From Massalongia carnosa (Eukaryota), in assembly GCA_965645245.1 (NCBI GenBank), contig OZ287087.1, positions 744,001 through 808,000 of the forward strand: a stretch of 64,000 bases of DNA, written 5' to 3'. Shown one piece after another: positions 4,276-61,748 of the stretch. The position numbers were made by a program, and so were the translations under genes. The notes under the pieces are model-generated. The model was given only the letters and a program-made list of their open reading frames with translations. It was not told where the DNA came from and searched no databases. Each line of letters opens with the position of its first letter. Within the stretch, counting starts at the first letter, position 1.

Positions 4276-4362
4276 AGAAGCTAGTGATGAGATGCTTGAA
4301 CTATTTCCTTATCAACAAGAGTCAGATGTCTTTGAATTGAAAACGTACTCCGTATAAAATCA

Positions 4363-4779
4363 TTACGAGTCGTCCGGCGCTTCGACGATAACTTCGGCCA
4401 TAGCATCGATTGCTTTGGAATGTGCATCACTAGTGATCCATTGCCGATCACTGAGCTTTTTCAATGCATCATCAATCCAATTTTGGCAATTCCAGGAGCA
4501 GTCTGAGTTATTGACTGGGGTTGATATGATTGTCGATTCAATGCCTACCTTTTCATGTTTTTGGATTTCTCCTACCAGTATCTTCTGAACGAATTTTTTA
4601 CTCTTCGATGGGTCTTCGTCTGACTTGACTTCAGCTTGGAAGAAGCCGCTTGCCCCGGTGACATGCAACAGCAGTGTGGTGGTATCGGGGAATTCGAGGA
4701 AAAGAGCAGTGTGTCTGTATTTAGAGGCATCGATGGGGCTTCCTTTGTAAACAATAATACTGAGAGAAGCAGTCATCAT
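4363..4779 (-). CDS. Small permuted papain/NlpC-P60-like protein (DUF6540-like)
   Basis: Intact 138-aa ORF from ATG 4779; His motifs RHTAL and LHVTG precede WNCQNW. Confidence 0.65.
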   Translation of the reverse strand: MMTASLSIIVYKGSPIDASKYRHTALFLEFPDTTTLLLHVTGASGFFQAEVKSDEDPSKSKKFVQKILVGEIQKHEKVGIESTIISTPVNNSDCSWNCQNWIDDALKKLSDRQWITSDAHSKAIDAMAEVIVEAPDDS

Positions 4780-6562: not shown

Positions 6563-7274
6563 TAAGGTATTTTTAGGCTTGCGATATTCTTTCCCCCTTC
6601 CTCCGAAAAAGAGCCTCGGGAATTTTCCCGTTGATCGCAGCATATCTTGCGATAATTGTGTCCTTTTTCCCCCCACCGCGCGCAGCTGCCTTTCCGCTCC
6701 CCTCCGCGCATGCGTTCTCGGCGGGGGCACCCCGCCGGGGAAAGATCATCATCTCATTAGTCCCCCGCCCGCAAAATCCGAGGGTTTGCCCCATCATCCT
6801 GCTTACATGACTACGGCAGCTACTTGGTAATGCTTACCGAGTTGGTGGCGGTATAGCTTGCAATGCTTGCCCAAAAAGATAGCTGGGATAGTCGGTGCGG
6901 AATCCCCCTTCCCCCCCCCCCTAATTATTCAATAGTTCGCTCATGCTGCATGCTGATGAGAACAGTAGAAAAGAGGCGGTATGCCGCGCGCTCCTGCTCT
7001 CAGCGAGTACAGAGGATGAAAATCGGCAGGCGGCCGAGAAATTGGTACTGGACGTCGCCATCGATGTTTGGGCTTTTCGACGGTCACTCTCTCAGCTCGG
7101 GAAGTGCCACACCAACACAGCAGACAGCTCTCCAGGTGGAGTTAGCGATGACGATGGCTCTACCACTATTCTTTTAGGCGCTCTTTGGGACACGGAGAAT
7201 TTTTCAAATTATGATGGTAATATTGGGTGCCTGTTTGGGATCTTAGCGTTTCTTGCGTATTCAGGCACGGCCTC

Positions 7275-18000: not shown

Positions 18001-21000
18001 TTCGATAGGGACCATGACGAGGTTCCAACGTTCCTCGCTGCAGTCGGTCCTTCAGCAGCTCTATCACCATCGGTACCAGGGCCCTTGGCAATGGGAATGA
18101 TGGGGGTTGCCATGCCTCGTGTGGAATGGTGTTGATTTTACATGGTGGAGACACCTCAGGTTTGACTCTGCCCATCTCGGAAAACTCCCATGACAGCGCT
18201 GCTTCTCGGTTGTATAACATCTGGGTCAACACTTCTTTCTCAGCAGTCATACTGTCGCCCACTGTCATTCGCTGCAGCCGTTCCGGTGTCAATCGTGAAC
18301 CTTTGAATATTGTCGAGAACTTTGGAATTAGCCAATCAGGAAACTTTTCTGACTTTGGTAGACCTCTCTCTTTCTCTAGCGCCTTCGCCTTTCAATCTGC
18401 TATTCCACCAGGTATGGTGCCATCCGACTGGTCAGAATTCACTAGTCGAACCTTGACTGCCTTCCGTTTGTATGCCGTATCAACTCTCACACTACTCAGT
18501 CGCCCGAACACCCTGTTCTGATTGATCGTGTATGTACATGTCGAATTTCCGAAGAAAACCTCAGAGCCGAAAGTCCGACCGAGCCAATTGCACGCGACGG
18601 TGTGAAGGCGCGAACATAGTGGTCCATCGCTGCCTCTTCCGCACTAGTCGCTGTTGGAGTTGGGGCTATTTGATTTAACAGGCCGGGCCTGTTAAATGGA
18701 ATGGAATATTTATTCTCCGATAGTCCAACCCTAAAACTCCACACTTTCGATCTCTCCAGGTTTTTATTACTGCTACCAACCATGGACCTGTTCGGCACAT
18801 GGTGGCTGGCTAGTTTAAATTCTCGTCTCGGTCCTCCGGAAACAGGTCCTCTGCTGTATGGAGTTTGCTACCAGGATCGGAAGTCACTGTAAACTTAGCA
18901 GTTCGTTTCCCATCTTCAGCATGTATGTGCATTCTACCTCGTTGTTACGGTAGTCCAAGCCTACACGCATCTGGTGAAGATAAAGCACTAGTTGATGGAC
19001 CGCAGCATCAATGACAAATATGTGGTTGAGCGACGCTACTCCACCAATATCAACCTCCACGTTTTCACACACCCCGAGGAATTCCTTTCTATGTCCGGTA
19101 TGGGAAATAAGATTGATATTTGGGTAAGGTCGCATGGCCAGACCCTCGCGCTTAGCGACATCATATGTCATCACATTCACTTCGGCACCTGAGTCAAGAA
19201 GAGACTTATATCGGCCTTCATCACCAACTCGCACTTTGACCTTGAGTGTCGACCTTGTATATGCTCTGCGGAGTAGTGGATCTCAAATGCCGATAGAGCC
19301 GATTTTCACCGTTGGACCGTCCTGTCTTTCTGCTTCCGTATTTCGTGTCAATTTGTTAACTATCGATTTTAACATGAGTAACATGGCTATGATATTGCCA
19401 TTGATCAGTCCTCCAGTACCAGCTGCTAGCGATTGCAGATAGCGGCCCTGTATCAAGTCCACGTTGAACTCTCGTCTCGCTATTTTCAGGAATTCTTCTG
19501 CACCCATCTTTTCTATGGCGTCTCGAACTTCTCCACGAATAGGTGCCCTCAGCATTCCGGTACCTGGCTTCTTCTTTCCGCCGCCTTTCCCAGCTAGACC
19601 TGCCTCTGTCATTTCCACATCTTCTTCTATAGGGTCGGCAAATGTTACCCGAGGTTCTGCCGCGGAAGTTCTGTCGGTCGGTTTTGATTGATCGATACTA
19701 TCACTCCGACGTTCTACCGAAGTAGGAAGAGGACTCCAATTCCCATATCTAGGTGCTTTTGGTACTGCGAAACGGTCCTCGCGCTCAGCCCTGCGTTTCA
19801 GAATTCGTTTAGTTGGCTCTTTCCAGTTCTCTTCAGCAGGTTTATTGTTTTCGGTCCTAGCTGAGTTGATAGAAGTGGTATGTTCGATAATAGTCACCTC
19901 CGGATCCCATTTTTCGTCAGAAGAAAAGTCATCTGCACTATCCTCGACTATTCGAACCGTGTGCACTTCGGCATTTTGTCCCGCTTGACTAAATTGATTG
20001 GCCAACATCTTCGCACGTCTAATGGACTCTTTTTGTGCCACACCCGGTAAATGCCGAATGGGATTGGAATATGTACCCATCGGTCCCAAACAGAGCAGGC
20101 CTTTCTCATTCAGATGAATAACACCATTCCTTTAGTCTACGTCGAATTCTAGACAGTCCATTCGCCTATCATACAGTACCTTCTCTCCGCAATAGTTGCA
20201 GCTTTCGTCGCTACCATATTGATGGTCATGCTGTTGTCTCTGACCGTTATAGAATGATTGTCTATGTGGTGACTGGGAACGGTTCCGACTCTGTTGACTT
20301 TACTGACTATTCTGATTGACCGGTCGCATTTGAGCTCCGGTGGCTAGGACTAATGCATCGAACTTATTGGTCAGGTCCATGATAGTCTTCTCCGTGGACT
20401 TCGATAGGCTAACAGTAGTCGAGTCTACTACTGGTGGACTAAGCGAGTTCATAATATTTTCATGACCGTCTAGCACAATCTTTTTGTCGAACTGGTCGGC
20501 TAGAGCACTATATTTATCAGTAACGCTCTTTTTGGTCCGCATCACCTCCTTATATTTCATTCTCGCATCTACTAGTGTCAGAGTCTTTTTCACTAGTCCA
20601 TCAAAGTCCTTCATCACATTATCGTCCGAATTAACACCTCGGCGAAAGAACAACTCTTCGCGTATGTCGGCAGAAAGACCTTGCATGAATCACTGAATTC
20701 GTGTGTAAATGTCTAGCTTCTCTTGACTAATTAGGGCTTTGGATATGGCACCGAACTTCCGACAGAAGTTCCGCACATCATCGTTGCTAATGCGTACTTT
20801 GTCCTTGTACGACTCCAGAAATGGCCGAGAATTCACCTGCTGAATGCTATCGCCAGCCTTGTACTCTTTCTTCATCACCTTGCTCAGCTATGGCCATCTT
20901 CTCTCCACAAAGTCCGGAAGCGACTCAATGGTCTGGCAAATTAGCATGTCACAATAGCGGGGCAACCTACGAATTTTCTCATCGTTTCCGACATGACAAT

Positions 21001-21172
21001 CCTCACACATATCCTCGTACCGACTCAGCAACTCCGATACATTTTTACCTTGAAAGAATGGAGTGCCAGGAGTGCCTGGTTGAGGCATGGTCATCACAAA
21101 TCCAAAGGGTCCAGCGGACATGGCTGGCCTATTTCCAAAGGACTCGGGGCTTGTCGACGATGGTGTAGCCAT
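15025..21172 (-). pseudogene. Gypsy gag-pol, multiple frameshifts and stops
   Basis: gag PFFQGKNVSE, protease LLDSGAEVN, RT FLDD, RNase H VDAS and ETDA, integrase H2C2 and core, RWLGPY. Confidence 0.92.
15352..15552. mobile_element. Solo LTR inserted in Gypsy integrase
   Basis: 5-bp TSD tgctg (15347-15351, 15553-15557); removal restores DNQH-TAKLTFRW; both termini read TA instead of TG/CA. Confidence 0.8.
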
Positions 21173-21659
21173 AGTGCTCTCTGTCTCGTGGATAGGTTGA
21201 ACTTCGGTTGTAGGTATGATAGTCGATGGAATATCTCGGCTCGCAGGTGGAATAGAACTATCAATTCGCGTGTGTGCCTCGTTAGTGCTTCGAACGCTAA
21301 TGACAAGTAGAGGCCACCTATTATCTTTGAAACATCAAAACTTTTGTATCACCGCTTCGTTTTCGATGATTTTTACTACAGTCGAGTCTGCTGAGTAACA
21401 TCTATCAGCTGGTAAATTATGAGCAAACGGTAGTAGCTAGATGATGATTGTGAGGCAGATGGGGGAGAAGTATCGTTAGATTTTCGAGCAACTTCCGCTC
21501 CTTTGGGCGCAATATTTTCGACCTTTTGACCTTTCAATCATCATATCATCATCAAAAGCGATTCGATTTTCGATATTTTTGCATCATCTGAATGCGCTGA
21601 CCGAGGTCTATAATTCAGTGAATTATGCATTTCAGGTAGACAGTAGGTGATGATACATA

Positions 21660-21726: not shown

Positions 21727-23072
21727 CAGTACTAACTAGTTAGGCCAAATGTCTGCGGCCCCGCACCCCACCAACATTTCAATCATTCTATTCAATCAAC
21801 AATCAACCACGTCACGATTGCTGAAATGTCTTGAAACTTTACATAATGATTACATACATACTAAACAAGAATTCCCCCAAAAATTAATTTTTAATATTTA
21901 GTATACCATCCTTCCGACGCTATACACGCTTTTATCCTCCTATTCATGCTCTCTATTAACCTCCTCATCATTTTCACATCTATCAACGTCCAGGCTTCTT
22001 CTAACGCTTTCCAAAGTACCTCACGAACAGTTTCATCACTGCCGATCACCAAATCTATGTTCTGGTTGACTTGATAGACGAGCTTTTTGAGCACATACCA
22101 AACGTGCTCGATGGGATTTAAATCAGGTGAATAGGGGGGCCAATCGATGACCTCTATGCCGTTCTCATTGAACCATTCCATCACCTTTTTAGCCTTATGT
22201 ATAGGTGCGTTATCCTGCATGAAAATGAGGCCCGGTTGCCAAATTCCAAGCAGATTATCGTTCAATAATTCCATATATGAGTTCGCCGAGTACCCCATCT
22301 TCTTCGCCGTAAAATCACGAGCCAATTTGTAAAGATCTGATCTGTCATCTCCCCAAAAAGCTGCCCAGACCATGACACTGACTCCTTTGCCTTTGGGGAC
22401 AGGTTGTATCATCTCTTTATTCCATTTTTCTTTCGGCAATCTGAACACCCACTGACGCTGTTTTCCTGACCCCTTTTCCACCGAGCACTCATCTGACCAT
22501 ATAACTCTTGACCACTGCTCCAAAGTCCACTCACGCCGCAGCAAGCACCAATCCAATCGTTTCTTGGCCACCTCAGGCGTCAATAAAGGTCGGTTTTTAG
22601 CCACCCAGTTGGTTAAACCATACAGTTTGAGTGCCCGATAAATAGTCGTACGACTGCAGCCGAGCCCCACTTCTAGTTTGATTTGTGCATAAGTGATTCG
22701 TGGATTGATTCGTGCATGCTTGATGATATAACGTCGATCGCGTTCTGACAGCCCTTCAGGCCGTCCAGAACGTGATTTAGACACGCCGTCGTTGCGAATT
22801 GAGTGCTTCTGAATGCTGCTCTGCACGGTCGATTTAGTGAAATTAAGAGTCTTCCCAATCTCGGTCGGTATGTGCCCCAACGCCTGGGCCCCAACAATCA
22901 TACCACGTTGATATGGCGTCAATTCGGTGTTACGAGGCCGATTACCACTTTTGGGGGTCAAAGAAGCACGAAGCATGGTGAAATGATGAGATGGAAGATG
23001 AGGGGTTGATGAGTTGAAAACGCGAAATCACGAAAATTACGGGTTGGGCCGCAGACTTTTGGCACGGGACTG
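21727..23072 (-). mobile_element. Tc1-like transposon (DD34E), full length
   Basis: TA flanks; imperfect TIRs cagt...gccaaa.gtctgcggccc. Confidence 0.93.
21891..22976 (-). CDS. Intact Tc1 transposase, 361 aa
   Basis: HTH region, WSDE, MQDNAP, SPDLNPIE with D-34-E spacing; no stops. Confidence 0.93.
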   Translation of the reverse strand: MLRASLTPKSGNRPRNTELTPYQRGMIVGAQALGHIPTEIGKTLNFTKSTVQSSIQKHSIRNDGVSKSRSGRPEGLSERDRRYIIKHARINPRITYAQIKLEVGLGCSRTTIYRALKLYGLTNWVAKNRPLLTPEVAKKRLDWCLLRREWTLEQWSRVIWSDECSVEKGSGKQRQWVFRLPKEKWNKEMIQPVPKGKGVSVMVWAAFWGDDRSDLYKLARDFTAKKMGYSANSYMELLNDNLLGIWQPGLIFMQDNAPIHKAKKVMEWFNENGIEVIDWPPYSPDLNPIEHVWYVLKKLVYQVNQNIDLVIGSDETVREVLWKALEEAWTLIDVKMMRRLIESMNRRIKACIASEGWYTKY

Positions 23073-23428
23073 TAGGTAAAGATGCAGGTGATAAACTGTT
23101 TGATTTTCTAAAAAAATATTTTATTTTATCTCTAGTGAAACGCAGCCACCTTGTGTTTATTGCTAATCTAGTGTTCGGGCAAAGTCCTGACCCTAGGGTG
23201 TGGCATGACACCGTTCGTGCGCCGTCCGCGCCGGGTACGGAGCCGCAACGGGTAGGCTATGGGGTCCATGGACGCTGTAGATGCGAACCCTGGGGTCAAG
23301 AAATACTCCCAAAACCCCAAAACCGTGTTTCTCGCAGAGGTATGGTTTAGAGCGTGCGAAGTCTCGCGATGGTGCGGGTGCGGTGTGAATGTGGTGAGGG
23401 TTCGGGTGAGGTGCGGGACATGTGGTAT

Positions 23429-24330
23429 TCAGCCTCTTTGATGTCGTCTCGAAGCATTCCATATGATTGAGGGGTTTGTGTGTATGTATAATCGGTAGGC
23501 GTCTGATTTCCAGCGTCCTAGCAGCTTGATTTCATCCTCGTTTAGGCCGGCGTTTTTCGCGGAGGTGGCGGCCCCTCTCCGAAAGGAGTGACCTGAATAA
23601 TTTCCCTGACATCCCTTGTCTTTTAGAACGTCTCGTAATGCTTTAGTGACAAAGTTTCGTGTGAAAGCCTTTTTTGGATAGAACAGAGGTTGGGTGAGAT
23701 CTATTGGAAAACGTTCGATCAGATTTCTCAATGATCGGACTAGGCAGGCTTCGTCGTTGACGGCCGCTACTGTAACTGTGACCCCTTGTCGGAAGGGATC
23801 CGTCTTGGAGGCGGGAAGGGTCAGCTGTAATCTGTCCTCGCTCAGTGAACCTCTGGTTATGTGCCACTGGGCAAAGTCGTCTCCCTACATGTTTTCTTCC
23901 CATGTGAATTCTCCGATACGTAAGAAGGCCGCGAAGGCTAAACAGAAGGCCGCGTGCAGTGTGGCTCCCCTTAAGGAATTTTGATCAAAAGTACTAACGA
24001 TCTCTTTTAGGATGGATCGGGTTATAGGACGTTCTCGCGGCTGGGCGGCGGGACGGAGCCGGCGTATGCCTGCCACGATTTTCTCTAGTTGGGGATGATG
24101 GAAAATGTCTAATTCGGCCTTCGACGCGCCTCGGTCGACTTGATAAGATCTGATGCCGCTTAAGTATTGTTTTATGGTTTTTGGGTTAATTCCCTTGTCG
24201 CCTAAATGAGCTGCCCAGTCGCATAATAAGCGAATGGACGGAGGAAAGGGGACGTGATTCCATATCACGCAGTATTCGGTGTAGCTTCGTCGTGCCTGCT
24301 CGTACGATGTTCTAGTCCCTACAGCTAGGC
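23429..24330 (-). pseudogene. Tyrosine recombinase of the YR retrotransposon
   Basis: AFAAFLRIGEFT, SKTDPFR, GHSFRRGAAT, LGRWKSDAYRLY; one in-frame stop at 23885. Confidence 0.9.
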
Positions 24331-26590
24331 CCCACCATAGATATCTCGCTGCTGAGTTTGACAGATCTTGGTTTTGGAACCAGTGTTCCGGTGGTTCACC
24401 GATTGTGCCCCGTGGGCTAATGTCAAGTCCTGTAGTAAAGGATAGTTGTCAGCAATTTTGTTCCATTGACCGCGGGAAAGCATATTTGCCAGAGTATTCT
24501 CTCTTGATGAGATCCAGTGTGATTCAATGACGATGTCATGTAATGCTAGTAGCATGGCAATATCCCGTAGGGGTTTCATGGCCGGGCCGCGTATGGAGCC
24601 GTTGCGTAGTCCATTTACGACCGCTTGATTGTCGCCATATATGACGAGTTTGCATCCTTTAAAAATAGATAACCGTTTGCGCAGTGCGTGTAATACAGCC
24701 ATCATTTCTTTGACATTGATATGTTTCTTCATGTCTCTGGACGAGGTCCTTATCGAGAATACTTCGGCGGACGAGACTAGAGATTCCTTTGAATGTCCTT
24801 CATCGATCGTTCCGACTATTTCGCTATGCGCCATGCGTGACGCGGCATGTTCCCGGACGAGGTCCGGTGAACCTTTGATACCTCGAGCAGATGCAGCGAG
24901 AAATTCTTTGGAATTTTCTTCGTCTGTCATCCCGGCCATCCGCATCGAAGACACTTCGGCAGATACCTCCAGAAAGTCGCTGTAATTTCCTTCTTCGGTT
25001 ATCTCGGTTGTCTCGGACTTAAAGGTGCGCATTGCGATGTCCCGGGACGAGGTCCGTATGGCTGACCTCTCGGCAGGTGTGACTAGGAATTCGTTGAAAT
25101 TCTCGTCGTCTATCACCCCGACTATCCTCTGAGACTGCGAGACCCGGACATCTTGTATCCTTAACTCGTTGTCTGAAGACGTCTCGAAAGAGATTGAGTT
25201 CTTCTTCTTTGAAGGCATCCAATGCGAGGGTCTCGTGAGAACACCTCGTCTTGGGAGAGATACCTCGGCAAACGCACGCTGTGTTTCGGTTGTCTCTAGT
25301 GTTTGTGTATTTGAATGACGAGAAAGCGTGCCCGCTTCGGTGGAGTGTGGGGTTCGGTACACCGAATAGTACCCGCCCATTCCCCATGTTCCCGAAGCGT
25401 CTGTCCATAGACGAATTTCCTCTCTATTCAGCGATCGTAAGATTTGAACGCCGTTCTATCGGGGCAAGAAGTATTGCCACCATAATAGATCTAGCATGTC
25501 GCCGGCTATGCGGATCCGACCCGTGTCTTCGCCGAGGGCGGTAAATAGGCGGCGTAAAAAGGCTCTGCCTGGTTTGACCACTTTGGCCGCAAATGATAGA
25601 AACCCCAGAAGGGAACGTAGTTCGTCTTTGGACATATAGTCTTGCGTCAATGCGCTGTTGACCCATTCGATGGCCTTTTTTAATTTGTCGGGAGGTAGGC
25701 GGGCTTCCATGCGTTGGGTGTCTAGTGTTAACCCGAGAAAATCGCAGATTTGCCCCGTCTCTCCCTTTGATGCGTTTATACGCATGCCCAACTCGTCGCA
25801 CAACGTGTCGAACGCGGACTCGTAACAGGATTCCTCCTCGTTCGTCTTGACAATCGCGAGGAAGTCATCTAAATAATGTAGGACTAGCCAATTCTGAACG
25901 ACTAATATCCAGTTTATTCCCTTCGCGAAGAGATCGAAGATAAATTGGGAGGTACGAAGACCAAATGGGAGGAAGATGTCCATCCAATAAGAATTGTTCC
26001 ACTGAAAACCCAGTAGCCACCAGTCCGCTCTTGCGACGGGTATGTGCCGGAAGGCGTCCGCGAGGTCGCGTTTTATGAGGTATGCTCCTCGTCCGACGTC
26101 AAGAAGAGCTTCTAGTGCTTCGTCAAATGATGTATACTCTAGGGAGCCCCATTCAGCGGGAATGTGATAATTGACCGAGCCCTTGCGTGGATGAGACAGA
26201 TAATGAATTCTTCGCTATTTGCCATTGGTCTTGGGGACGAGACCTAGTGGGGAGGAATACAGTGAGGCGGTGGTTCCCGTACGGGTACTAAACGGTGATG
26301 TTGAATCTGTTCGTCCAGATCTTTGGACAACACCTCGGGTGCATCTTTGGCAGAAGATAGGTTCGGGCTTACGATACGCTGTTTTGGCCCTGTGTAGCCA
26401 ATCCTTGCCCCACATCGAATGATGTTAAGAATTGTCCTTCTATAGACACACTCTGGATGTTTCTCCAATCGTCGTTTCCATCCCGCTGACTTAAGTGGGC
26501 ATCGTACCTCGTCCGCATCCGCGTCGGTGTCTATCCGATATGGAAAACCCTCGGAAATGAACGAGAGAGCGCTTGAGACGGATAGTCAAC
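24325..26590 (-). pseudogene. RT-RNase H of the YR retrotransposon
   Basis: SPLGLVPK, LPFGLRTS, LHYLDDFL, WTDASG, HINVKEM, YGDNQAV; some frameshifts and stops. Confidence 0.88.
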
Positions 26591-27553
26591 TGGGCTTGCT
26601 TTGCTGTGGAGGATATGGATTGACGCGCATGCGACAATCGCGTTGCGTATGCTGGCGTCCGCATGACGCGCAAACGTGACGAAATGCGCAGTTGCTTGGA
26701 CAATCGCCGCCGTTGTTGTATCGTCTGCACGCTGCTATGCCGCGTTGATCGTCTTGACTTGACATGCGTTGAACGAGCGAATTCGTGCTCTGTGTTCGAC
26801 GAAGATTGGGGCCAGCGTTGTAATCGATTTTTCGACTGAGATTTCGTTCTACTAAACCTCTGTTCGGGGTCCGCCAACCGCGCGGGTCGTCCACGCCCTC
26901 GACGAGGCGGGCTTTATGAAAGCCGAAGTGGAATTGACGAATTGATTCGAACGTGTATAGAAGAGACCATCCTAGCAATTGATCGATGTAGACGTGCATT
27001 GCCGCTTGTAGTTCCATTTGTGTGCCCGCGTGAGCGATGTGAATGACGATTTGACAGTATATGAGAAACGCGCGAAGAAGATGTGTGATTCCTCGTGCGT
27101 CTGAGGCCAGGGCGTCCTCTTCCCGATATTCCACCTCAGTCGACCCGATTCTTAGATATTTGTTTTTGGGCTGAACCGACTCGTATTTGGTCGACAGCTT
27201 CATAATATTCTCCACTTTGAACTTGTTGTCACGGATGTTTTTGAAGTGCTCCGTGTCTACCATTGGAAATCGAGCTATCAGAGAATGAAACATAGGAGAC
27301 GCACCCTCAGCATGAAATGTCGCGAACGCGCTCGGTCTCGCTGGTAGTATTAAAGAATTTGTGGGTGGTGCGGATTCTGTGCGTGACGGCACCGCTTCGT
27401 CTCTGAGACGCTGTATCTCGCGTTCGAGCTCTGCCTCCTCTTGCTCGATTTCTCTGGCTTTTGCTTCGGCTCGTAGTCTTTCGGCTTCCGCCCTGAGGGC
27501 CGCGCGACGGTCTGGAGGCGGGATTGCCTCGGGGGAGGAGTGGCGTGACTCAA
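26586..27553 (-). CDS. Gag-like ORF with C-terminal Cys/His finger
   Basis: CRRYNNGGDCPSNCAFRHVCASCGRQH; start position uncertain. Confidence 0.7.
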
Positions 27554-27732
27554 TTTTCTATTGTGGCCTCTCTAGAGTCTGATTGAGGTGAGACTCGGGC
27601 TCCCCGGCCGCGTGTGCCTCTGCCTCGACCCCGACTGCCGGTCGCACCACGGGGAGGAATCGTCTGGCGATTCTCTCGCCCGCTTTGACTGCGTGTAATC
27701 ATGATGTGAATAGAATATGAATAATATGTTTG

Positions 27733-27757
27733 CGTGTGTGTGAGTGTGTGTGTGTGT
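27733..27757. repeat. (GT)n microsatellite in the YR element leader
   Basis: Visible dinucleotide run with one interruption. Confidence 0.8.
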
Positions 27758-28141
27758 AGAAACAGCGAAACACGATTTTTGATGAGTGTTGATAAGGAAA
27801 GAGAGAAGAGATGAGGGGATGGAGGAGGTGAAGAGTTTTATACCTCCCTGCTAGCGTCAGGCCCTATCCCGCTTACACTCCTGGTGCCGTCCGTCACGGT
27901 AACAACTTCACTAGCCCCCAGCAAGCTGGTGCGTTTTAGTGTCGTGCTACGCCAGATCAGATTCGAGTGTCGAACACGCGATCAATTCGAATTGCCCGAT
28001 CGAACAAGCGTCATATTCAAAAACGTTCGATGTGATCGAATCGAGAGCTCGAGCCAAATTCAAATCCAATTCTTCGATTATTTTAATTGCGCTCGTTGAT
28101 TAACAGTATTTAATATCGCTGTAACATTATGCTTTGAATTA

Positions 28142-32629: not shown

Positions 32630-34609
32630 ATGTCGACCTCTCTAGACGATGAGCCACCAAGCCTTGAAGAGAACGATCACCTTCTCGCTTCCTCCAGCTA
32701 TCCTATGGATATTCTGAAAGGCGCAACTGCGCGATATCGTGATGGAATCGAAGATGCAAATCGTCGAATCTCGCAAGCTCAGGAGGAATGTTTTCCCACT
32801 GCCCGCCCGAACATTATAGATTCTCGTCATGGTGGACCAAAGAAGTCAGCAGTGCGTATCTTTTACGCTCTTTGCAGGTGGGTAAAAGGCCCTCGACCAC
32901 CTCGACCATTCAAAATAAAACCCATCTTGCCACAGCTTCAGAACGTCCCTCTAGCCTTTCTTCAGAGTTATTTCCCTGGGCGACAACAGAAATTCTGGCT
33001 ACTTACAATATCTTATCTCTTATGGGTAAGTTTATTCTTGGGCGTCTTGTCTATCTCGATATCTGGATGTCAAGTCCCTGGATACAGAACCCCAGTTCGA
33101 CTTTCTTGTGTCTCAAGATTCTGGTAAGCGCGTCACCGCACTTCTATCCTCGCGCTGGCTGACTTTCTCAGGCGCAGTAGCACCTTTTGCGGTGTAGACG
33201 CATCCAATTGTCGCCCGTTCCATAACGTAACGTTTGCTTTTCGCTGCCCAGCTGATTGCCGAGGAACTATAATTTCTTCTCCGGAAACGATTGGTGACAA
33301 GGAATACAACTATCGGAGCATCGTTGTTGGTGGTTCAACACTAGCAGCGAATTCGAGTCTGCCAATCTATCGTGGGGATTCTTTCATCTGCGGAGCAGCA
33401 ATTCACGCTGGGATCTACAGCAATCACGATGGCGGAAGTGGTATTGTGTCCCTGGTTGGAGAACATAATGACTTCCCAGCTATTGAAGCGAACGGCATAT
33501 CGAGCCTTAATTTCACCCCTAGCTTTCCCCTGTCGTTCACCTTCTTGAATAACGCTGGTGGGAATACAGCTCAATGCAACGACCCTCGGTGGAGGCTGCT
33601 TGTTATCACAGTGCTCTTCACGGTCACGGTATCCATATTTACCACGTCACCGTCAGTGTTCTTTGGTTCTTCGTTTGTCAGTATATACTTCTACGTTGCG
33701 CTAGCATCAGATCCTCCTGACTTTGAAGATTACATGTCCGTCTTCTCATGGGCCTTTCGTGGATTCCTCCCTGCAGTATTCGTTGGACTCGTCATTTATC
33801 ATTTTTGCATCCACCACAGCCTCAACCGCTTGACCGCACAAATTGAGAAGACTATTCTATGGCTTGGAGGTTGCTGGCTTGGCGCGTCCAGTAACCTCAC
33901 CTTTGAGAGGCTGCCTATCCAGCGTCTGACGCTCCACGACCTTCAGCAACCGGGGGCAATACCTACCGTGGTAATAATTGTCCTCGCTGTCCTTTTCATT
34001 GCGATCTTCCAGGCCTGGGCGTTTAGGATTGAAGGTAGAATGCCTCGATACCTAACTTTCTACGCCGGGCTTGGCCTGCTGATTCTAGCGCTGGTGGCAA
34101 TCCCGCACACGAACGTTCGAATCCATCACTATATCTTGGCACTGTTACTTCTCCCGGGCACAACACTGCAGACCCGCCCAAGTCTTTTATACCAAGGCCT
34201 CCTCGTGGGCTTGTTCATCAACGGAATCGCGCGCTGGGGCTTCGATAGCATCCTGCAAACACCCAGAGAATTGTTCGGGGACGACTTCAACAGCCCGATC
34301 CCCCAAATTGCTATGCCCATTGTCGATAGCATTAACAATAGCATCACCTTCTCATGGAGTAATATGCAAAGCGGACACGATGGCATGAGCGTCTTAGTTA
34401 ACGATATCGAACGCTTCCGTGCCTCCGAAGATTATGACGAAGATTCATTTACATGGACATGATATAAAGAGGCGGATCCCGAGTACTTCCGTTTCGCTTA
34501 TGTGAAATACGAGCCTTTAGTCGAAAGTTCCGTGGGAAAGTTCACGAAGCCTGGAACTTGGGAATCGGACGGCACTTGGATTCCTCCTAAGCTCGGACCG
34601 GTTGGGTAG
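32630..34609 (+). CDS. LCCL-domain multi-pass membrane protein with a premature stop near the C-terminus
   Basis: Exon 32630-33123, intron 33124-33171 (gtaagc...gctgac...cag), exon 2 with FRCPADC and YRGDSFICGAAIHAG, several hydrophobic helices; TGA at 34460 with the frame continuing to TAG 34609. Confidence 0.85.
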
Positions 34610-50113: not shown

Positions 50114-50641
50114 TACGTATCCCACATAGCCACATAGGCCAGTCTTACGTTTAACGAATGCATACTAGGCCTACCCTATTACAGCTATGCACTAGAAAAT
50201 ATCAAAGATACAGAAAAAAACTCGAAAAAGATGCCTTTTATAGGGATCGATATAGATAATCGCTTAGCCCAATCCAGCTGCTTATGTCTTTATCAATAAG
50301 TAAACAGTTTGATTAAACAGACTTTCTACCCTTTGTCCATTTCATTTATTTGTGTTTTCTTTAGAAGGCCAATCCGATGCGTCTCTTGTGGTTATTTCTG
50401 ACCTTCATTAATTGCTCCTATATTTGCTTGATGATAATCGGCCGTCTACGGTTTCCGTAGAGGGAAATAAGATTTAGCGTCTCGAAACTTTTGATTTCTA
50501 TAATCGTTCCATTCACCGTAAAAAGGATTGAGTAACGGAAGCGATTAATGCGCAGACAGATGCCGTACTTTTCTTTGATTGACCTTGAATAAATGTGGTT
50601 AAATCGTGACAGACGTGATAAAGTGTTTGATAAATAAACAA

Positions 50642-51433
50642 TATATTTATCAGTAACACTTTTTTTCGATCCGCATCACCTCCTTATATTTCATTCTCGC
50701 CTCTACTGGTGTCAGAGTCTTTTTCATTAGTCTATCAAAGTCCTTCATCACATTATCGTCGAAATCAACACCTCGGCGAAAGAACAACTCTTCGCGTATG
50801 TCGGCAGAAAGAACTTGCATGAATTACTGAATTCGTGTGTAAGTGTCTAGCTTCTCTTGACTAATTAGGGCTTTGGATATGGCACCAAACTTCCGACAGA
50901 AGTTCCGCACATCATCGTCGCTAGTGCGTACTTTGTCCTTATATGACTCCAGAAACGGTCGAGAATTCACCTGCTGAATGCTATCGCCAGCCTTGTACTC
51001 TTTCTTCATCACCTTGCTCAGCTATGGCTATCTTCTCTCCACAAAGTCCGGAAGCGACCCAATGGTCTGGCCAATTAGCATTTCACAATAGCGGGGCAAC
51101 CTACAAATTTTCTCATTGTTTCCGACATGATAATCCTCACACATATCCTCGTACCGACTCAGGAACTCCGATATATTTTTACCTTGAAAGAATGGAGTGC
51201 CAGGAGTGCCTGGTTGAGGTATGGTCATCACAAATCCAAAGTATCCAGTGGACATAGCTGGGCTATTTTCAAAGGACTAGAGGCTTGTCGACGATGGTGT
51301 AGCCATAGTGCTCTCTGTCTCGTTGCTAGGTTGAACTTCGGTTGTAGGTATGATAGTCGATGGAATATCTCGGCTCGCAGGTGGAATAGAACTATCAATT
51401 CGCGTGTGTACCTCATTAGTACTTCGAACGCTA
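50642..51433 (-). pseudogene. Gypsy gag fragment, second copy
   Basis: High nucleotide similarity to 20509-21299. Confidence 0.9.
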
Positions 51434-51434
51434 G

Positions 51435-51702
51435 TTAGCACGGTTTTCGAGAACATCAAATCATGAAAAACGCGAACAACGACCACCTTTCACGGCTCAC
51501 AGCGGGCATAAAAGAAATGTAGTTTTCGCGATACGAACTGATATCAACAGGATCAGTTGATCTTTGAAGCTTGACGAAGTGAAACGGTCCGGTACGGTCG
51601 AGGCAAGCGAGGAGTTTTTGGTCCTGTCCGCACGACGTCCTCTCCACAATAAAAGTAAATTCAGTTCAATATAGACGAGTACGTGCCATCTCAGAACTGA
51701 GA
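51435..51702. repeat. ~270-bp direct repeat R1 at the Helitron 3' side
   Basis: Aligns at roughly 90% by eye with 59652-59700 joined to 61336-61555. Confidence 0.9.
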
Positions 51703-51808
51703 TTTTCGAACCTATTTCAAGTTTTTACGATCGATACAATTCGTAAAAGTTTGTAATATTAAAACCACGAATGCAATACAAAATTATCTATTTACTTAGC
51801 GAAAAATG

Positions 51809-52203
51809 ACGTACCAGCTTGCTGGGGGCTAGTGAAGTTGTCACCGTGACGGACGGCACCAGGCGTGTAAGCGGGATAGGGCCGGACGCTAGCAGGGAGG
51901 TGAAAATCTCTTCACCTCCTCCATCCCCCATCTCTTCTCTCTTTCCTCATCAACACTCATCAAAAATCGTGTTTCGCTGTTTCTCCCACCCGCCCTCTTT
52001 TACACAGTCTGTCGCTTAGAAAGATGGAGTATGTCTTGACCCCAGGGTTCGCATCTACAGCGTTCATGGACCCCGTAGCCTACCCGTTGCGGCTCCGTAC
52101 CCGGCGCGGACGGCGCACGAACGGTGTCATGCACCGCCCAAGGGTCAGGACTTTGCCTAAAAACTAGAATAGCAATAAACACAAGGTGGCTGCCTTTCAC
52201 TAG
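51809..52203 (+). mobile_element. Non-autonomous miniature relative of the YR retrotransposon
   Basis: 51809-51983 matches the 5' end and 52026-52203 the 3' end of 23132-27934; no coding region; no TSD. Confidence 0.9.
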
Positions 52204-53835
52204 TCAATAAATTTTTGATATCCGCAAAATAAAGTTGCTGTTTATTTTGCAATTGAATACAATTTCTAAGTGACATGATACGTACATCATTATAAACTTA
52301 CAGCAGGATTCGGAGGAATATGAGTTATTATGTCGTGTTGCGATCGCAGAATTACTTCGGGATATACAATGTTATCCGTTTTTCCGTCATTTCGTTCCGG
52401 AAACAACACACAAAATCGAGACACATCCGTAACTCGAGATGATGCCACATATAACTGACCATGAGTAAAAGGAGGAGCTAGCAAATCGACTCCTACCGTG
52501 TCTAATGATTGACCTTGCGACTTTTTGACAGTGATAGCAAAGCACAATCATATTGGAAATTATTTGCGACTTATGATCTAGGGAAACTCGCCTTCCGTGG
52601 TATTAAGAAAAATCCGGGGAATCAATCATGTTTCACCGTTGAATTCTCCTCCCAAAATCTTTCCCTCTAGACAGGTCCGCGAAATATGAGTAAGACGTAA
52701 TCGGTTGCCGTTACAGGGACCAAGTTTGAGATATAAATTCCGCAACAAAATAATCGGAGCTCCAAGTTTCAGTTGCGATTGTGAAGGAGGTAAATACGAT
52801 TTTTATAAGGTTATAAAAACTCGGGAGGAAGAAAGGCTCCTCGTTCCTGCGCCGTATCGTTCTCTATTTGATCAACGGAATTCAAGGTATGCGAATCACC
52901 CTGCAATTTCATCAGTATTTCACCGTTTAACTCCGCGACGACATCATTTCGCAAGGTCAAAATTGCTCGAATTGCGAAAAAATCCGCATCCAGATGAGCT
53001 TGCCGCATGCGATCTGAAGGAAAAACGGTGTCCACGAAACTGTCTAAGTTGTTCAATTGATTGACTTGTTCCGGTAGCTGAACACGACCGTAAATAGCAG
53101 GATCATAAGACATTTTCCCGATCCAGTCCGCAAACGCTTCATTGGCGACTCAGTTACGAATTCGCGTGTATTGACGCAAAAACAGTTTTTGAAATCGCGG
53201 CCACAGAAAGGTATTTTGAATATTTGCCGCAACGATGGCTTCCCGCTTTCCGTGGGAACAACGGGCAAAATTTGAGCGAAATTTCCGCCTAACTCTATCG
53301 GAATATCTCCAAAAAGATCGTCATTGTCTAAAAGGTCCGTAAAAGTGCAATGTACGGCTATGAAACATTATTTGTGTTGCATCGGCACCTCATCTCAAAT
53401 GATTAATAATGTGCGTTGCAAAAGAACGTGTAAATGCGTGTTGCGGGTAATATTACACATGCTGTCATATAAATTCAAAGGAATTTTAAAACGGGGATGC
53501 AAAGTCTGTCCGCCAGGAAGAAGTAAACCCGCAATGCCGGAAGACGCAACGCAAAGAACGATTTTATTCTCCGCCCGAAAATGATTGCAAAGAGTCTTAT
53601 ATAAAAAAGTCAAACCTGTTCCTACAGGTCCGTGAACAAAAAAATGCGCAGTTCTCGGATGATCTCTAACTCCCGCAACAATGGTATCAAAACCGTGTTT
53701 CTGATCCGCATTCAGTTGAGTATATCTTTCATTTCTTAACGTCGTTTCTTCATTGAAATCGTAAGTCATTTCACCCGCAATTAAAGGATTTCTAGTACTC
53801 CGACCCCAATCGTGTATAAATAAAGGTATATTAAA

Positions 53836-56534
53836 GGGTTCGGATACGGGGACACCGGGTAGGATGCATGTACACCGGGCACTTGATGCATGTATACCGG
53901 GCACTTGATACATATACACCCTCTTCCCAAAATGTAAAAGGGCCGGCACATTTCGCACCACTTTACCTTTCTTGGTTAGCAGATGAAAAATCAGATGAGA
54001 TCTTGAAATTTTCAATTGATGCATCATCTTTCTCAATCATTCTCAAAATATGCCTCTGGCTCCTCCTCACGATGACCAGGGTTTTTCCACCTTGGAAGAA
54101 CTCATTCTCAGCGTCAATACTCACGCCGGCTCAGAAGGATACGCGGTGGTCACAGCTAGATCAAAGAAATCAGATCTTGGCATCAAGAGAAAAGTCTGGT
54201 TGCGCTGCGACAGGGGAGGTAGCAATCGAATACTTCGAGGCAGAGATAGACGTCATACCAATACTCGAATCAGCGATTGTCAGTTCAAGGTCACGGCGGT
54301 GCGAACAGAGTGGATGGAACCTGGTTATTGGAAGTAATCAACCCATTCCATAATCATGAAGCTACAATTGCTGGATCGCATCCAACGTTACGCAAAATGG
54401 CTATGACTGAAGAGATTAAGAACGACATCTCTAGACAATTGACTGTGCAAACAGCTCCTTGTAAGATTCTCTCCACCCTTCGTATTGACACCGATAACAA
54501 CAATCCGTTATTCAAGCCTCGAGATATCTACAACATCAAGGCATAGCTGAGACGAGATACTCTAGGTCCTTTAACCCCGGTTCAGGCATTGATGCAGGAA
54601 CTTGATCAAAACGACTGGACGTACAACTATCAAAAGACATTCGCAAACAGATTACCCACTTATTCTTCGTGAGAGGAACATCCCAAACTCTACTGAAGGT
54701 CAATCATGAAGTTCTGGTCATGGATTGCACCTAGAAAACCAACAGATATAAATTTCCGTTGCTGATCATCAGCGGGCAAACGGCCCTACATACTAATTTC
54801 AATGTCGCGTTTTGCTTCATGGCAAAGGAGAAGCAGGTAGATTATGAGTGGACATTGGGACAATTGAAGTCGTTGTATGCGCAGTTGCAACTTCCAGATC
54901 CGGTGGTTGTTGTGACCGACATGGAGCGTGGGTTGATGAATGCCGTGCGATTGATCTTTCCCAATACGAATCATCTGCTCTGTTTTTGGCATAAACAAGA
55001 ATGTGACAGCAAATTGCAAGAAGGACTTCAATACCAAAGAAGAATTGGATGACTTCATATCCGCCTAGACTTCTGTTGTATACGCCACTTCCAGAGTTGA
55101 TTACGAGCCGGCGTGGCAGGGAATGAATGACACCTACTATCTAACGCAAGGAGAATGTTTGGATTATCTGCGAGAAACGTACATCATGTCCTTTCATCGT
55201 CGCTTCGTGAAATTTCAAACCGATCAGGTGTTACATTTCGGAACCACAACTACTTCTAGAGGTGAGGGGGGGCACGCAGCTCTTTAACGTCATCTCGGAG
55301 TATCAACAGGTAATGAGTACAACCCTAAGAAACAATCAATACTGACTGAGCTGTAGGAGATTTGAAAACAGTTGTAGATGGCATCAACCTACTTCTAATC
55401 AACGAGCGACAAAATTACATGATAGCCTTTGACGAAGCGAAGATGCGATACCCTATGAATCTTCGAAAACCAGTTTTCAATCGCATCGCGGCGTTCGTAA
55501 CCCCATACGCATTGAGAAAAATGGATGATCAATACAGACTGTTGACGGACCAAGCAACGGCAGTCAATCGTTGCACTGGAAGCTTTACAACTACTACCGG
55601 ATTACCATGCAGTTACAAAATGCAGGAACGTTTATTCGGACCTGAGGGATTTCTGATTTTGGAAGATGTCCATCCTCATTGGAGGTTTGAAAGATCTTCC
55701 TTACCTGATCCAATCAATGATCCAGCTCTCGATCCGCTACTTCAGGTGGAAGAACCAGCAGTTGTCCAACCTCGAGGACGTCCTACAGGGGCGGAGAATC
55801 GTAGACAAGCATTGGACAACTCCACCTATTGGAATCCATCTCAATTCGAAATCGTTGAAGGTGAAATAGCAGAGCAACATGGGAATGAACTGCCAGCGGA
55901 TATCGAACGAGTTCTGGCAAGAGCCGAGGTTACACCAGCGGGACGCGGGCGCGGGCGCGGGCGCGAGCGACGACGAAATGAAGGTGAGGTGGCAGGCACT
56001 CGTGCCTCATCCAGGCCTGCGACTCAAGCAGCAACTAGGGCGGGCAGGGCGGGCAGGGCGGGCAGGGCGGGCAGGGCGGGCAGGGCGGGCAGGGCGGGCA
56101 GGGCGGGCAGGGCGGGCAGGGCGGGCAGGGCGGGCAGGGCGGGCAGGGCGGGCAGGGCGGACAGGGCGGACAAGGCGGACAAGGCGAAAAAGGTCGGCGA
56201 GGCGGGCAGGGGGGGCAGGGGGGGCAGGGGGGGCAGGGGGGGCAGGGGAAGAAGGGGTAGGACTGATGAGGCAATTGCGACCGAGTAGCTAGAAGATGTC
56301 ATCTTATCAATCTTGATGAGATGCAACAGATCAATACTGAAAACTTCATTGCCGCATAGTTTTCAAATCACCATCTGATTTTTCATCTGCTGACCAAGAA
56401 AGGTAAAGTGGTGCGAAATGTGCCGGCCCTTTACCTTTTTGGGAAGAGGGTGTATATGTATCAAGTGCCCCGGTGTATATGCATCAAGTGCCCGGTGTAC
56501 ATGCATCCTACCCGGTGTCCCCGTATCCGAACCC
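53836..56534 (+). mobile_element. Mutator-like element in the Helitron
   Basis: ~160-bp TIRs gggttcggatacggggacaccggg; 8-bp TSD atattaaa; degenerate transposase 54050-56288 (CDRGG, HNHE, MDCT, VTDME). Confidence 0.92.
56037..56250 (+). repeat. GC-rich 9-bp tandem repeat (agggcgggc)n
   Basis: About 13 perfect units plus variants, encoding RAG/RGG repeats in the transposase tail. Confidence 0.95.
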
Positions 56535-59500
56535 ATATTAAAATCCTGCAGGAATTTCCCCAAATCCGAAAGAACTTCGTTTAATAAATACAGTCCGTAA
56601 CCAAATGCGGAGTCGTTAAATCGTCAGGGATATCAATCATAAACCGTAATCGATGCGGCAAATCGTCATATATATCGTTTGCGTATCGAACCCACGTTGT
56701 CGAGGTTGCCAACATTTTTTCTTGGGTTCCCAAACGAAATGATTCGGAAAATCTTGATACAACAACTCGCGACCGTCGTCATAAAGTCTGTTATACTCGA
56801 AAAATGCCATTAATTTTGAAACGGATCTGTTCAACGTGTTATGCAGATCAATAAGATCCGCATCCGCATTGAAATATACGGACTGTTGGTCCGGCAAGTG
56901 AATAGGGAGATGATAAACTACAGGAAATTCCTCGTGTGTAGGGTATTCCCATAATTGCCATGCGGCTTGAGTAGGACCGATATAACGACCGTTTAAATGT
57001 CTTGCGATTTCGTCGTCAAATCCGTCAATCTGTACAGTAGCTCGATCCGCGCCTTTGTAAATGTATTTGTGAATTTATTTGACGGCCTTAACGGTCGCGC
57101 ATACTTCTACATTGATATGAGCTTCGTACCTGCGAGAAAGATACGGATTATATAGAACAATCCAACGATTGTCGTAAAGAAAAACACGACCACCTCCTAA
57201 CGGAATTTCCCAGGTACGACCGTCATTACGGCGACGATATATCGGATATCCATTTTCTTCCACAACGGTTGTTTCCTGAAACGGGCGAGGATAACGCTTG
57301 GAACAGGTAGGAGATCCGGAATCACTTTGCATAAAGGGCGCGGTAGGCATTGCAGCTCCGCAAGGACTGTGAGTCATTTGTTTAATGATGATTTCCTTTA
57401 AACTTCCGTCCGTATCAAGAGCCGGATCTGGCAATTCAGCGGAGATTATTAGATAAATGCGATCCGCGTCCATAAAACGATCGTCCGGATGCAAGAACAA
57501 CAGCAGATGCATGTGCGGCAATCCTGATTTTTGATATTCGATAGTCCAAACGCATCCACGAAAACGGCCGAATATGTTACTCTTTTTCAATTCTTGCAAC
57601 AAACTACTCTGCCGTAAACGAAAAGCGCGGGCCACGATATCAGGACGATCCGTTGCGGTTTGTCCGGGATAGTCTTTCAAGGCTTCTTTGATTTCCGACC
57701 AGTTGGGATTTGCGGTAAAAGTGATAAGTAAATCCGGCCGTCCGAAATGACGAACCAAGGCCATGCTGTCCTGAAATAATTGTTGCATAAACCGATCACC
57801 ACCTGTATATATGGAAGGCAGAATAAACCGCTTTCCTAAAGTTGCCGCAGAATTAACTTCATCCCGTCGCAAGCTGTCCGCAAGTCCGCTATATAATTCC
57901 GCTCTAATAACTGTTTGATTTTCTCGTAACTATTGCAGTTTGTTAAGATCGCAACTGGCCCACGCGTCAACCAAACACTGCTGAAACAATCGCTGACAAT
58001 GATGCATGGTAGAAAATTCATTTCGACGGGTGTGTAAACGAAACCTGTAATACACCCGTTGACATAAACGACCTCGTTCCCTCTGTCTTCCATTAGATCG
58101 AATCCGCAAATTCCAATGCCAGCCACGTTCGCCATGCGGGAATAGAAGAACATAATGAAAAGGCATATAGGCCGCATGATTTTGATCAATTCGTTTCAGA
58201 GATGTCCCCGTAACTCCCGCAACACGTTCCGTCAAGACAATATCACGCTTGCAAGGCTCGCCGTATTCATCGGGAATAATTCCAGCAATTTCATCGCTGG
58301 TGGGAATGTTACTGCGTCATCGATCCACACGCGCTTACATGATCAATCGCATTTGCGGATTGAGAATAATTCGCAAGTCATCGGTGGTGGCCGCATTTTC
58401 TCGCAAGGCCTCGCTGGCGGTCTTATAGAGTCCGATAAAGGAGTTCAAATCCTGTAACATTTCTGTCAATCGTCGCACAATATCCGGATCCAATTCTGCG
58501 TATTGTCGAGTACGAATGCGGTTGCTTCGGCGGGATCGTAAAAAAATAATAAAGCAAAGCGAGGAGAATCATCAACGGGGTCAAGAGGACCTTGCAAATA
58601 ATATAATTCTCCGTGAATTTGAAAACATATCGGACTGCGTCGATTGTGGGGAAGTCGACGATTAGGCTTATAATTTACGGAGGTAAAAGTCAACGCGGAG
58701 TTGTATTTCCGTAGGCTTTTGCGAAAGGCACGACTTCTAGAATCTTCTCCGATTAACAGTTGTCGCAAAAAATCCGGAGGAGGCTGAAACGGTGATAATA
58801 CAACATTACCTCGCTTGCAACAGGACTCCTATTCTCGCTCGCGTCTTCTGTAACCACGCGGAGCTTCGTCTTTCCAATGCCAGGCACCGCAATGTCTACA
58901 ATGATGATTCATGTGTTGAATCTGTCGCATAGCGGACCTTAAAGTATACTGACTTTTAAATGCCGCAGGTAAGTCACGATTGGCAACAACACGCTCACGA
59001 CGGATTTGACGATTTATATTTCACGACTCCAGACGATTAACAGATGAAGAAACGGATCTAAGACTCGCATTGTGAAGGAGATACATGTCTGGAAAACGAT
59101 CTTACGGAATCATTATTACGATTACGAATGTTCTCGTTCTCTTCTGCTTTATTGAGTAGCATTTCTTCCAAAATATTTAGATTGGCCTGTTCGGAACGAC
59201 CTCGAGACAATGAACTCGGTGACAAAAAAGCGGACGATACGGGAGAAGAACTCGCAGCAGAATCATGAAGCGAAAGTTGCGAAGACGCAGAAGATACAAC
59301 AGGATTTTTGGGAGGCGCAGGCGGACGCAAATAAAGACGAATGGGAGGTTTTAGAGGCCGTAAAATCAGACGGACGCGTTTCGCAGGTGGATTTTCTGGT
59401 TCAATCAAATTACTAAGCGGACTGCTAGGAGAACCCGATTGTCGTATAGGAATGGGAAGTCGAGAAGTGATCTCTAGTCGTGGAGAAGAAACTGATTGGT

Positions 59501-61335: not shown

Positions 61336-61748
61336 CCACTTTTCACGGCCCACAACGGGCGTAAAAGAAACGTAGTTTTCGCGATACGAACTGATATCAA
61401 CAGGATCAGTTGATCTCCGAAGTTTGACGAAGTGCAAAGGTCTGGTACGGTCGAGGCAAGCGAGGAGTTTTTGGTCCTGTCCGCACGACGTCCTCTCCGC
61501 ATTAAACGTAAATTCAGTTCAATATAGACGAGACTGTGCCATCTCAGACCTGAGATTAATTTGCTACTACTTTTCATTTGCTTACTATTTGGCTTGCTAT
61601 TTTTTCATGCGAATCTTAAAATATCTCGGATTTCTGCTCCGGAACTGCTCTGCTTCGCTTTGTACCGGCCCTGCGCCATCTCCTTGCCATCCGTCAAGGC
61701 ATCTGTCAAAGTATCATTCAAATAGTCTCCCAGATAGCCTCCTCTGAT

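Follow-up and report, generated by a model that had tools for sequence, protein, structure and literature searches.

The window, by which we mean the whole 64,000-nucleotide stretch of DNA that was analysed, contains two copies of one tyrosine-recombinase (YR) element family: a free-standing, non-coding unit of 395 bp on the plus strand and a degenerate copy of 4.8 kb on the minus strand. The features of the 395-bp unit are as follows.

51809–52203, plus strand: free-standing A-linker-B unit ('solo AB repeat'), 395 bp, non-coding
51809–51984, plus strand: A module, corresponding to the first 176 bp of the 4.8-kb copy, 94.9% identity
51814–51825, plus strand: inner palindrome CCAGC-TT-GCTGG, within the 20-nt spacer that opens A; an equivalent hairpin occurs in related families
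51829–51836, plus strand: inverted-repeat arm X′, CTAGTGAA, A positions 21–28; covaries with arm X across families
51985–52025, plus strand: linker L, between A and B; homologue of the A2-B2 linker of canonical relatives
51985–51993, plus strand: CCCACCCGC motif, starting at the first base of the linker; single occurrence in the window
52026–52203, plus strand: B module, corresponding to the last 178 bp of the 4.8-kb copy, 93.3% identity
52174–52179, plus strand: AATAAA, 24 nt upstream of the 3′ end; putative polyadenylation signal (inferred function)
52196–52203, plus strand: inverted-repeat arm X, TTCACTAG, the last 8 nt of B

In a self-comparison of the window, 51809–51984 aligned with the reverse complement of 27934–27758 (94.9% over 177 positions) and 52026–52203 with that of 23309–23132 (93.3% over 178 positions). 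Apart from the unit and the 4.8-kb copy, the 64 kb hold no further copies of the A and B parts. The end points of the two copies are identical, with ACGYACCAGC at the start and TTTCACTAG at the finish, and their flanks are dissimilar and A/T-rich. The 8-bp inverted repeat CTAGTGAA/TTCACTAG, the CCAGC-TT-GCTGG palindrome and the AATAAA are common to both. A sequence-only reading of this DNA had described a non-coding unit made from both ends of a YR element, lying in different flanks but with the same end points, and retaining the hairpin, the 8-bp inverted repeat and the AATAAA; the self-comparison confirms this description. The unit has what characterizes a solo AB repeat, namely A followed by B as in the 3′ module of the element, the exact element ends and no coding part.

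The joint between A and B measures 41 bp (51985–52025). Under permissive scoring, the 5′ similarity to the 4.8-kb copy extends via a C/A-rich stretch to unit position 198, leaving 19 bp of the joint without a counterpart there. Splicing was ruled out as the origin of the joint, since the break points lack GT..AG. Scans of the unit gave no tRNA, no Rfam match above noise and a longest ORF of at most 87 codons. Target-site duplications are absent, both around the two window copies and around the related loci described below.

The 4.8-kb copy is read from the minus strand.

23132–27934, minus strand: A-internal-B 'short form', 4803 bp, same family as the unit; degenerate, with no A2-linker-B2 after B
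26586–27557, minus strand: gag-like ORF
25456–26214, minus strand: RT (RVT_1, E 1.6e-10)
24325–25455, minus strand: RNase H (RNase_H/RVT_3, E about 1e-3, below the curated cut-off)
23429–24448, minus strand: YR (Phage_integrase, E 6e-4, below the cut-off)

The order gag-RT/RH-YR is the DIRS order found in Ngaro-like elements, and the coding content is likewise Ngaro-like, with RT, RNase H and YR encoded and neither a DDE integrase nor a protease. No scanned ORF matched a methyltransferase Pfam, and the interval from RNase H to YR leaves little space for such a domain. Because of several stops and frameshifts, the copy is a dead one. Its YR pieces align with intact relatives of 270–340 aa, and the catalytic R, K, HxxR, W and Y are kept. 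There are 467 homologues for its YR and 14402 for its RT; one cluster of RT fragments, 93% identical, has six members on Mb-scale contigs. A 20-nt motif occurs three times at 24731–25056 (in the minus-strand ORF 24325–25455), spaced 116 and 190 nt, and gives repeated peptide stretches. This internal repeat expansion sits between the RT and RNase H domains and is not seen in relatives of 535–556 aa.

Neither inverted nor split direct repeats were found in the 4.8-kb copy. No repeat of at least 14 nt is shared between its ends and its interior, and the best local scores of either end against the rest, 21–25, compare with top scores of 26–30 for the shuffled 5′ end. This absence is odd for an element of DIRS order, and relatives were therefore fetched via their YR proteins. 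An alignment of YR proteins (10 closer sequences) yielded 371 candidate stretches, of which 302 were confirmed; 79 loci, thus selected for a YR gene, were kept. The DNA of these 79 loci gave no alignment with A or B of the window. Canonical elements with the structure A1-internal-B1-A2-linker-B2 are present in five related families, the modules of which are listed here with those of the unit.

L041: A 253 bp, linker 50 bp, B 208 bp; repeats 100% identical
L060: A 270 bp, linker 50 bp, B 206 bp
L021: A 439 bp, linker 88 bp, B 184 bp
L005: A 196 bp, linker 39 bp, B 126 bp; A1 seen in L001
L056: canonical, B1 and B2 of 158 bp each; A plus linker 232 bp, undivided
Window unit: A 176 bp, linker 41 bp, B 178 bp

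The anatomy of the unit is that of the 3′ module A2-linker-B2 in these canonical relatives. CCCACCCGC, with which the joint of the unit begins, is found at the A2-to-linker boundary in six records of two families (L020, L021, L027, L032, L034 and L041). The total count of this motif in the 722 kb of loci, 11 occurrences, is about that expected by chance, and it is the position that counts, 6 of the 11 lying at the boundary. In a third family, a 17-nt stretch of the joint is identical to the L005 linker at 15 of 17 positions, a match equalled by 1 of 2000 shuffles. The 41-bp joint is thus homologous to the A2-B2 linker, the comparison being with related families and not with a canonical copy of the same family. 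The motif that opens the linker is conserved between families, although their A and B modules can no longer be aligned. The sequence-only reading had seen about 42 bp of unrelated sequence at this place and had taken the unit for a TRIM/MITE-like miniature. A joint is indeed present, of 41 bp, but 'unrelated' does not hold, and by its linker homology the unit is the element's own A2-linker-B2 module standing alone rather than an internal-deletion derivative of the 4.8-kb copy.

The five related families are represented by 29 records, of which 13 contain the B1|A2 junction. Sixteen of the 29 (12 distinct loci, as told by their flanks) end exactly at the B terminus and pass into unrelated DNA, so the A-internal-B short form is about as common as the canonical form in these families. 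The 4.8-kb copy ends at the B terminus like these 16 short-form records. Permuted A-L-B-A-internal-B insertions were not found among the 29 related records, nor were solo units in the related loci, a set chosen for holding a YR gene. An AT-rich stretch lies 25–40 nt upstream of the B end in the related families, comparable to the AATAAA of the unit. A further family, L018/L019, has inverted rather than direct repeats around its YR gene (4019–4222 versus 6864–7059, and 2653–2798 versus 4261–4407), an organisation that may be either DIRS-like, with inverted repeats, or a nested pair.

Copies of the unit were also sought in contigs of four public sequencing runs (X1, X2, X4 and X5, from three studies, one labelled lichen metagenome), which were placed on 51600–52400 at no less than 85% identity, giving 773 contig pieces in all. 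None of the four runs is the source of the window, the best containing 0.37 of the sampled words. The samples are possibly mixed, and absence in such contigs is weak evidence. The linker (51999, 52000 and 52021) is covered by 11–14 contigs in X1, 2–3 in X2, 4 in X4 and 6–7 in X5. Two X4 records bridge A, linker and B, one over 51872–52191 (record 19, about 87% identity) and the other over 51892–52203 (record 21, about 90%); in the latter, the similarity stops exactly at 52203 and is followed by 38 unlike letters. In three further contigs, from X1, X2 and X5, 51906 is joined to 52006 over a diverged middle. Long-form contigs are also present, with loose ends past 51984 or before 52026 that carry sequence of the 4.8-kb copy. 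Just upstream of 51809, seven X1 contigs diverge into mutually unlike flanks (agreement 0.52), and just downstream of 52203 three X2 contigs do so (agreement 0.58). The contigs of other runs thus lose similarity exactly at 51809 and 52203, which confirms from outside the window that the unit fixes the ends of the element.

Because several diverged linker-bearing copies with other flanks occur in the four runs, the linker-bearing unit is, by these contigs, a multi-copy family and not a one-off deletion. Copies sharing the junction in different flanks had been put forward as a sign of mobility; several were found among the contigs of the four runs, but they do not discriminate mobility from solo formation. 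The opposite case, a single copy with a unique junction left by a deletion, is contradicted by the linker in diverged contigs of all four runs. The summed contig depth of the linker relative to A is very roughly 0.2–0.7, depth being no measure of copy number. A B|A junction, leading from 52203 back to 51809, is not listed among the 773 contig pieces of the four runs, and an exact 21-nt pattern from the A terminus had 0 matches in metagenome_contigs and 0 in viral_contigs. An empty site of the unit was not found in the window: the left-flank repeat 51483–51706 stops 102 bp short of the unit, and the right flank has no other copy there. One X4 contig joins 51706 to 52239 (side 25), a weak joint that removes 532 bp instead of the 395-bp unit and mismatches the ends of the unit.

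Compared with nearly all placed contigs, the commonest difference of the unit is T here for C elsewhere, at 8 places, while the reverse change, C here for T elsewhere, is seen at 1–4 places depending on the run. This excess of T suggests that the unit has decayed from C to T, either through deamination or through a RIP-like process. About 100 nt into A, the 4.8-kb copy has a TATA-like GGTATAAAAC (27833–27839), opposite which the unit reads GGTGAAAATC (51901–51907). Most contigs of the four runs appear to read GGTGAAAAAC there, 51907 being the only listed difference from the unit. The TATA box looks private to one copy, the 4.8-kb one, and a TATA-based start site was rejected, as neither the unit nor most contigs contain the TATAAAA of that copy.

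Through a comparison of module termini, it was found that B closes, in six families including that of the window, with 6–8 nt whose exact reverse complement lies at A positions 21–31. The arms read as follows.

Window: B arm TTCACTAG, A arm CTAGTGAA
L021: B arm TCCACTAG, A arm CTAGTGGA
L005: B arm TCGATAG, A arm CTATCGA
L041 and L060: B arm AATTGG, A arm CCAATT
L056: B arm GATTGG, A arm CCAATC

For the window, 6–9 of 5000 shuffles (6 of 5000 being the figure for the 395-bp unit) reproduced an exact match of 8 nt linking the end of B to the opening 45 nt of A, and per family the arms were matched in 6 to 172 of 5000. Relative to the window arms, L021 shows one compensatory double change and L005 two. 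The arms are separated by a spacer of 20–25 nt with a short hairpin or palindrome, whose sequence is CCAGC-TT-GCTGG for the window, GGGTTG-GAA-CAACCC for L060 and AGCATG-CACA-CATGCT for L056. When the natural B1|A2 junctions were folded as single strands, an outer stem with an inner hairpin was obtained in four of the five families, the z-scores of the five folds, −1.45 to −2.88, being modest for such short sequences. In the unit and in the short form, the two halves of this B|A palindrome lie at opposite ends. The covariation of the arms would fit either a symmetric protein-binding site or a nucleic-acid structure. Compensatory changes with complementarity kept indicate a conserved site at the circle junction, and the B|A inverted repeat is, on these alignments, a candidate recombination or circularisation site of these elements. 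To our knowledge, the integration step of this retroelement class has never been reconstituted, and the conserved inverted repeat offers a candidate site for it.

DNA resembling the B terminus is also seen upstream of A. In the 4.8-kb copy (27935–27944, minus-strand reading), CACTAAA stands before ACGC, and in L020, at about 2552–2557, CATTAG stands before ATGG, to be compared with CACTAG|A at the junction. This may reflect a preference of the recombinase for target sites resembling its own junction. The unit does not display such DNA at 51809.

What, then, left an A-linker-B unit at this site? A solo LTR is a non-coding relic that arises by recombination between the direct repeats of one insertion and keeps the exact ends. 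We propose that the unit is probably a comparable relic, namely of homologous recombination between A1 and A2 in a complete Ngaro-type insertion at the same site. The ancestor there would have been a canonical Ngaro-type (DIRS order) tyrosine-recombinase retrotransposon, A1-internal-B1-A2-linker-B2. Recombination between A1 and A2 would remove its coding part and leave A-linker-B. The 4.8-kb copy would represent the other dead end, in which recombination between B1 and B2 loses A2 and the linker and leaves A-internal-B. It is here that the split repeats differ from an LTR, as they give two dead ends instead of one; moreover, the unit has no target-site duplication to prove its insertion history. 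Both products are stable, since no repeat is left in them. Both also lack the internal B1|A2 junction, which in the accepted model serves as the template for rebuilding the missing ends of the transcript, joined into the circle that YR integrates, and the unit would be inert for retrotransposition because this junction is missing. An old family, with copies 5–13% diverged and broken ORFs, could consist of A-linker-B and A-internal-B forms only, and this would explain the missing B|A joint in the contigs. Canonical copies of the same family were presumably once present, although none is seen in the window or in the contigs of the four runs, which can miss variants. Recombination rather than transposition would accordingly have generated this copy. 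One point counts against our explanation: the linker has a sizeable share of the depth of A, more than would be expected if B1×B2 events usually came first.

Several known systems bear on this proposal. Ngaro-like elements carry A1 at the 5′ end and B1-A2-B2 at the 3′ end and encode RT/RH and YR but no methyltransferase (PMC9210276, PMC3783388, PMC8969392). A close parallel comes from the Ngaro elements of Cafeteria burkhardae, where isolated A+B units are explained, in the manner of solo LTRs, as leftovers of recombination (Hackl et al. 2021, PMC8547959). There, too, the A+B repeats are scattered, and they occur beside A1-[ORFs]-B1A2B2 elements encoding RT, RNase H and YR (PMC8547959). The host is a different one, however, the sequences are unrelated, and no canonical copy of the same family was seen in our case. 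In Trypanosoma cruzi, SIRE consists of the first 185 bp of VIPER, about 30 bp exclusive to SIRE and the last 220 bp of VIPER; today it is understood to be the A2+B2 region of the VIPER split direct repeats, and it is left open there whether it is mobile or a remnant (Vazquez et al. 1999/2000, as summarised in PMC6681497 and PMC12278014). The anatomy is nearly the same as that of the unit (185 + ~30 + 220 bp versus 176 + 41 + 178 bp). In contrast, VIPER has the order gag-YR-RT/RH and is confined to kinetoplastids, whereas the order here is gag-RT/RH-YR, and SIRE is very abundant, while the abundance of the unit is gauged only roughly.

TRIM and MITE families are defined by their own transposition, as seen from target-site duplications, insertion polymorphism and subfamily structure. 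The unit resembles them in being short, non-coding, multi-copy and composed of both ends of an autonomous partner, but it lacks the internal junction required by the model for YR retroelements. The sequence-only reading had placed it among such miniatures, mobilised in trans. In such a SIRE-like non-autonomous family, transcription of the unit would start from A and polyadenylation would take place in B, and autonomous copies would supply the proteins for reverse transcription and integration. Several diverged copies in the four runs that share the internal structure in different flanks speak for this, as do the two conserved termini, the AATAAA and the linker motif kept in the unit, and a linker depth that is a sizeable fraction of the A depth (again no copy number); SIRE itself is counted with VIPER as a short version of uncertain mobility (PMC6681497, PMC12278014). 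The same copy pattern is equally expected from A1×A2 recombination at many sites. Recombination and the insertion of a mini-unit leave the same sequence, so the pattern separates neither, and it fits solo formation just as well. No promoter is evident, given the absence of the long copy's TATAAAA from the unit and most contigs. The unit also lacks the B1|A2 junction that the split-repeat/ICR model needs, and the analogous junction of DIRS-1, the internal complementary region (ICR), is reported from experiments to be essential for retrotransposition (PMC7192593). We give mobilisation in trans a minor chance. Most probably the stretch is an ordinary remnant rather than a mobile miniature of a new type.

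An alternative interpretation might be that the unit is a by-product at the DNA level, namely a 395-bp circle of A, linker and B that retains its B|A site intact and is integrated elsewhere by YR. Such a circle would be freed either by B1×B2 recombination within a chromosomal copy or by YR acting on the cDNA circle, whose two B|A sites it would resolve; the short long-form copies would derive from the reciprocal circle, A-internal-B. This would agree with the two window forms ending at exactly the same nucleotides, with short forms being as common as canonical ones in the five related families, and with the conserved, covarying bipartite palindrome at B|A, which suits a recombinase site. The reading is purely inferential, though, neither a circle nor a B|A joint being among the contigs for this family, and chromosomal recombination alone accounts for both forms. 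Free use of either junction by YR also predicts permuted insertions, which the 29 related records do not contain. Its chance is a slim one. A bolder version, in which the unit is a minimal recombinase substrate whose A-linker-B circles re-integrate via the B|A palindrome, so that a SIRE-like family spreads independently of RT, has a small chance of being right; if it were true, the CCCACCCGC linker motif would be a cis signal of replication or recombination. Finally, a full-length copy might have suffered a deletion private to this locus after its insertion, the break being closed with filler DNA; this would suit the presence of a single such unit in the 64-kb window and the 19 bp of joint that have no counterpart in the 4.8-kb copy. 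Such an origin is very improbable in view of the homology of the joint to the linkers of canonical relatives and its presence in several diverged contigs of the four runs with other flanks.

The unit is a new A-linker-B case of an already described kind, in a fungus-like genome; in the open-access literature we found no description of solo AB units in fungi. For annotation, such units are best recorded under solo AB repeats of a Ngaro-type element and not as a new miniature transposon, and the 4.8-kb copy should be treated as the complementary short form, not as a complete element. The window is rich in transposons and fungus-like, with Tc1/mariner, pogo, Copia, Gypsy, MULE and Helitron ORFs. 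An LCCL-domain gene at 33128–34462 resembles ascomycete protein clusters, which is weak evidence, and the host is on that footing probably an ascomycete. Sequence related to the window is also present in a run that carries the label lichen metagenome. For Ascomycota, a 2013 survey records a single Ngaro element, a remnant; should the host belong to this phylum, a multi-copy Ngaro-like family would extend that record (PMC3783388).

Both flanks of the unit are themselves multi-copy in public runs. Dispersed repeats lie around it, 50639–51433 corresponding to 20506–21299 (94%) and 51483–51706 to 61336–61557 (92%). The left-flank family diverges after 51794 in three runs, and since it continues differently from there, the immediate surroundings of the unit are a patchwork. 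Downstream lies a Helitron-like region with a PIF1 ORF (53395–54036, minus strand) and a Helitron_like_N ORF (57075–57929, minus strand). Inside it, a 9-bp tandem repeat of about 23 or more copies (55983–56288, in ORF 55350–56288), with a weak collagen-repeat match, is flanked by the inverted repeats 53824–54008 and 56361–56547. Two diverged Tc1/mariner copies (73–91% identity) are found at 5374–6569 and 21881–23078, the latter ending about 53 bp from the 3′ end of the 4.8-kb YR element.
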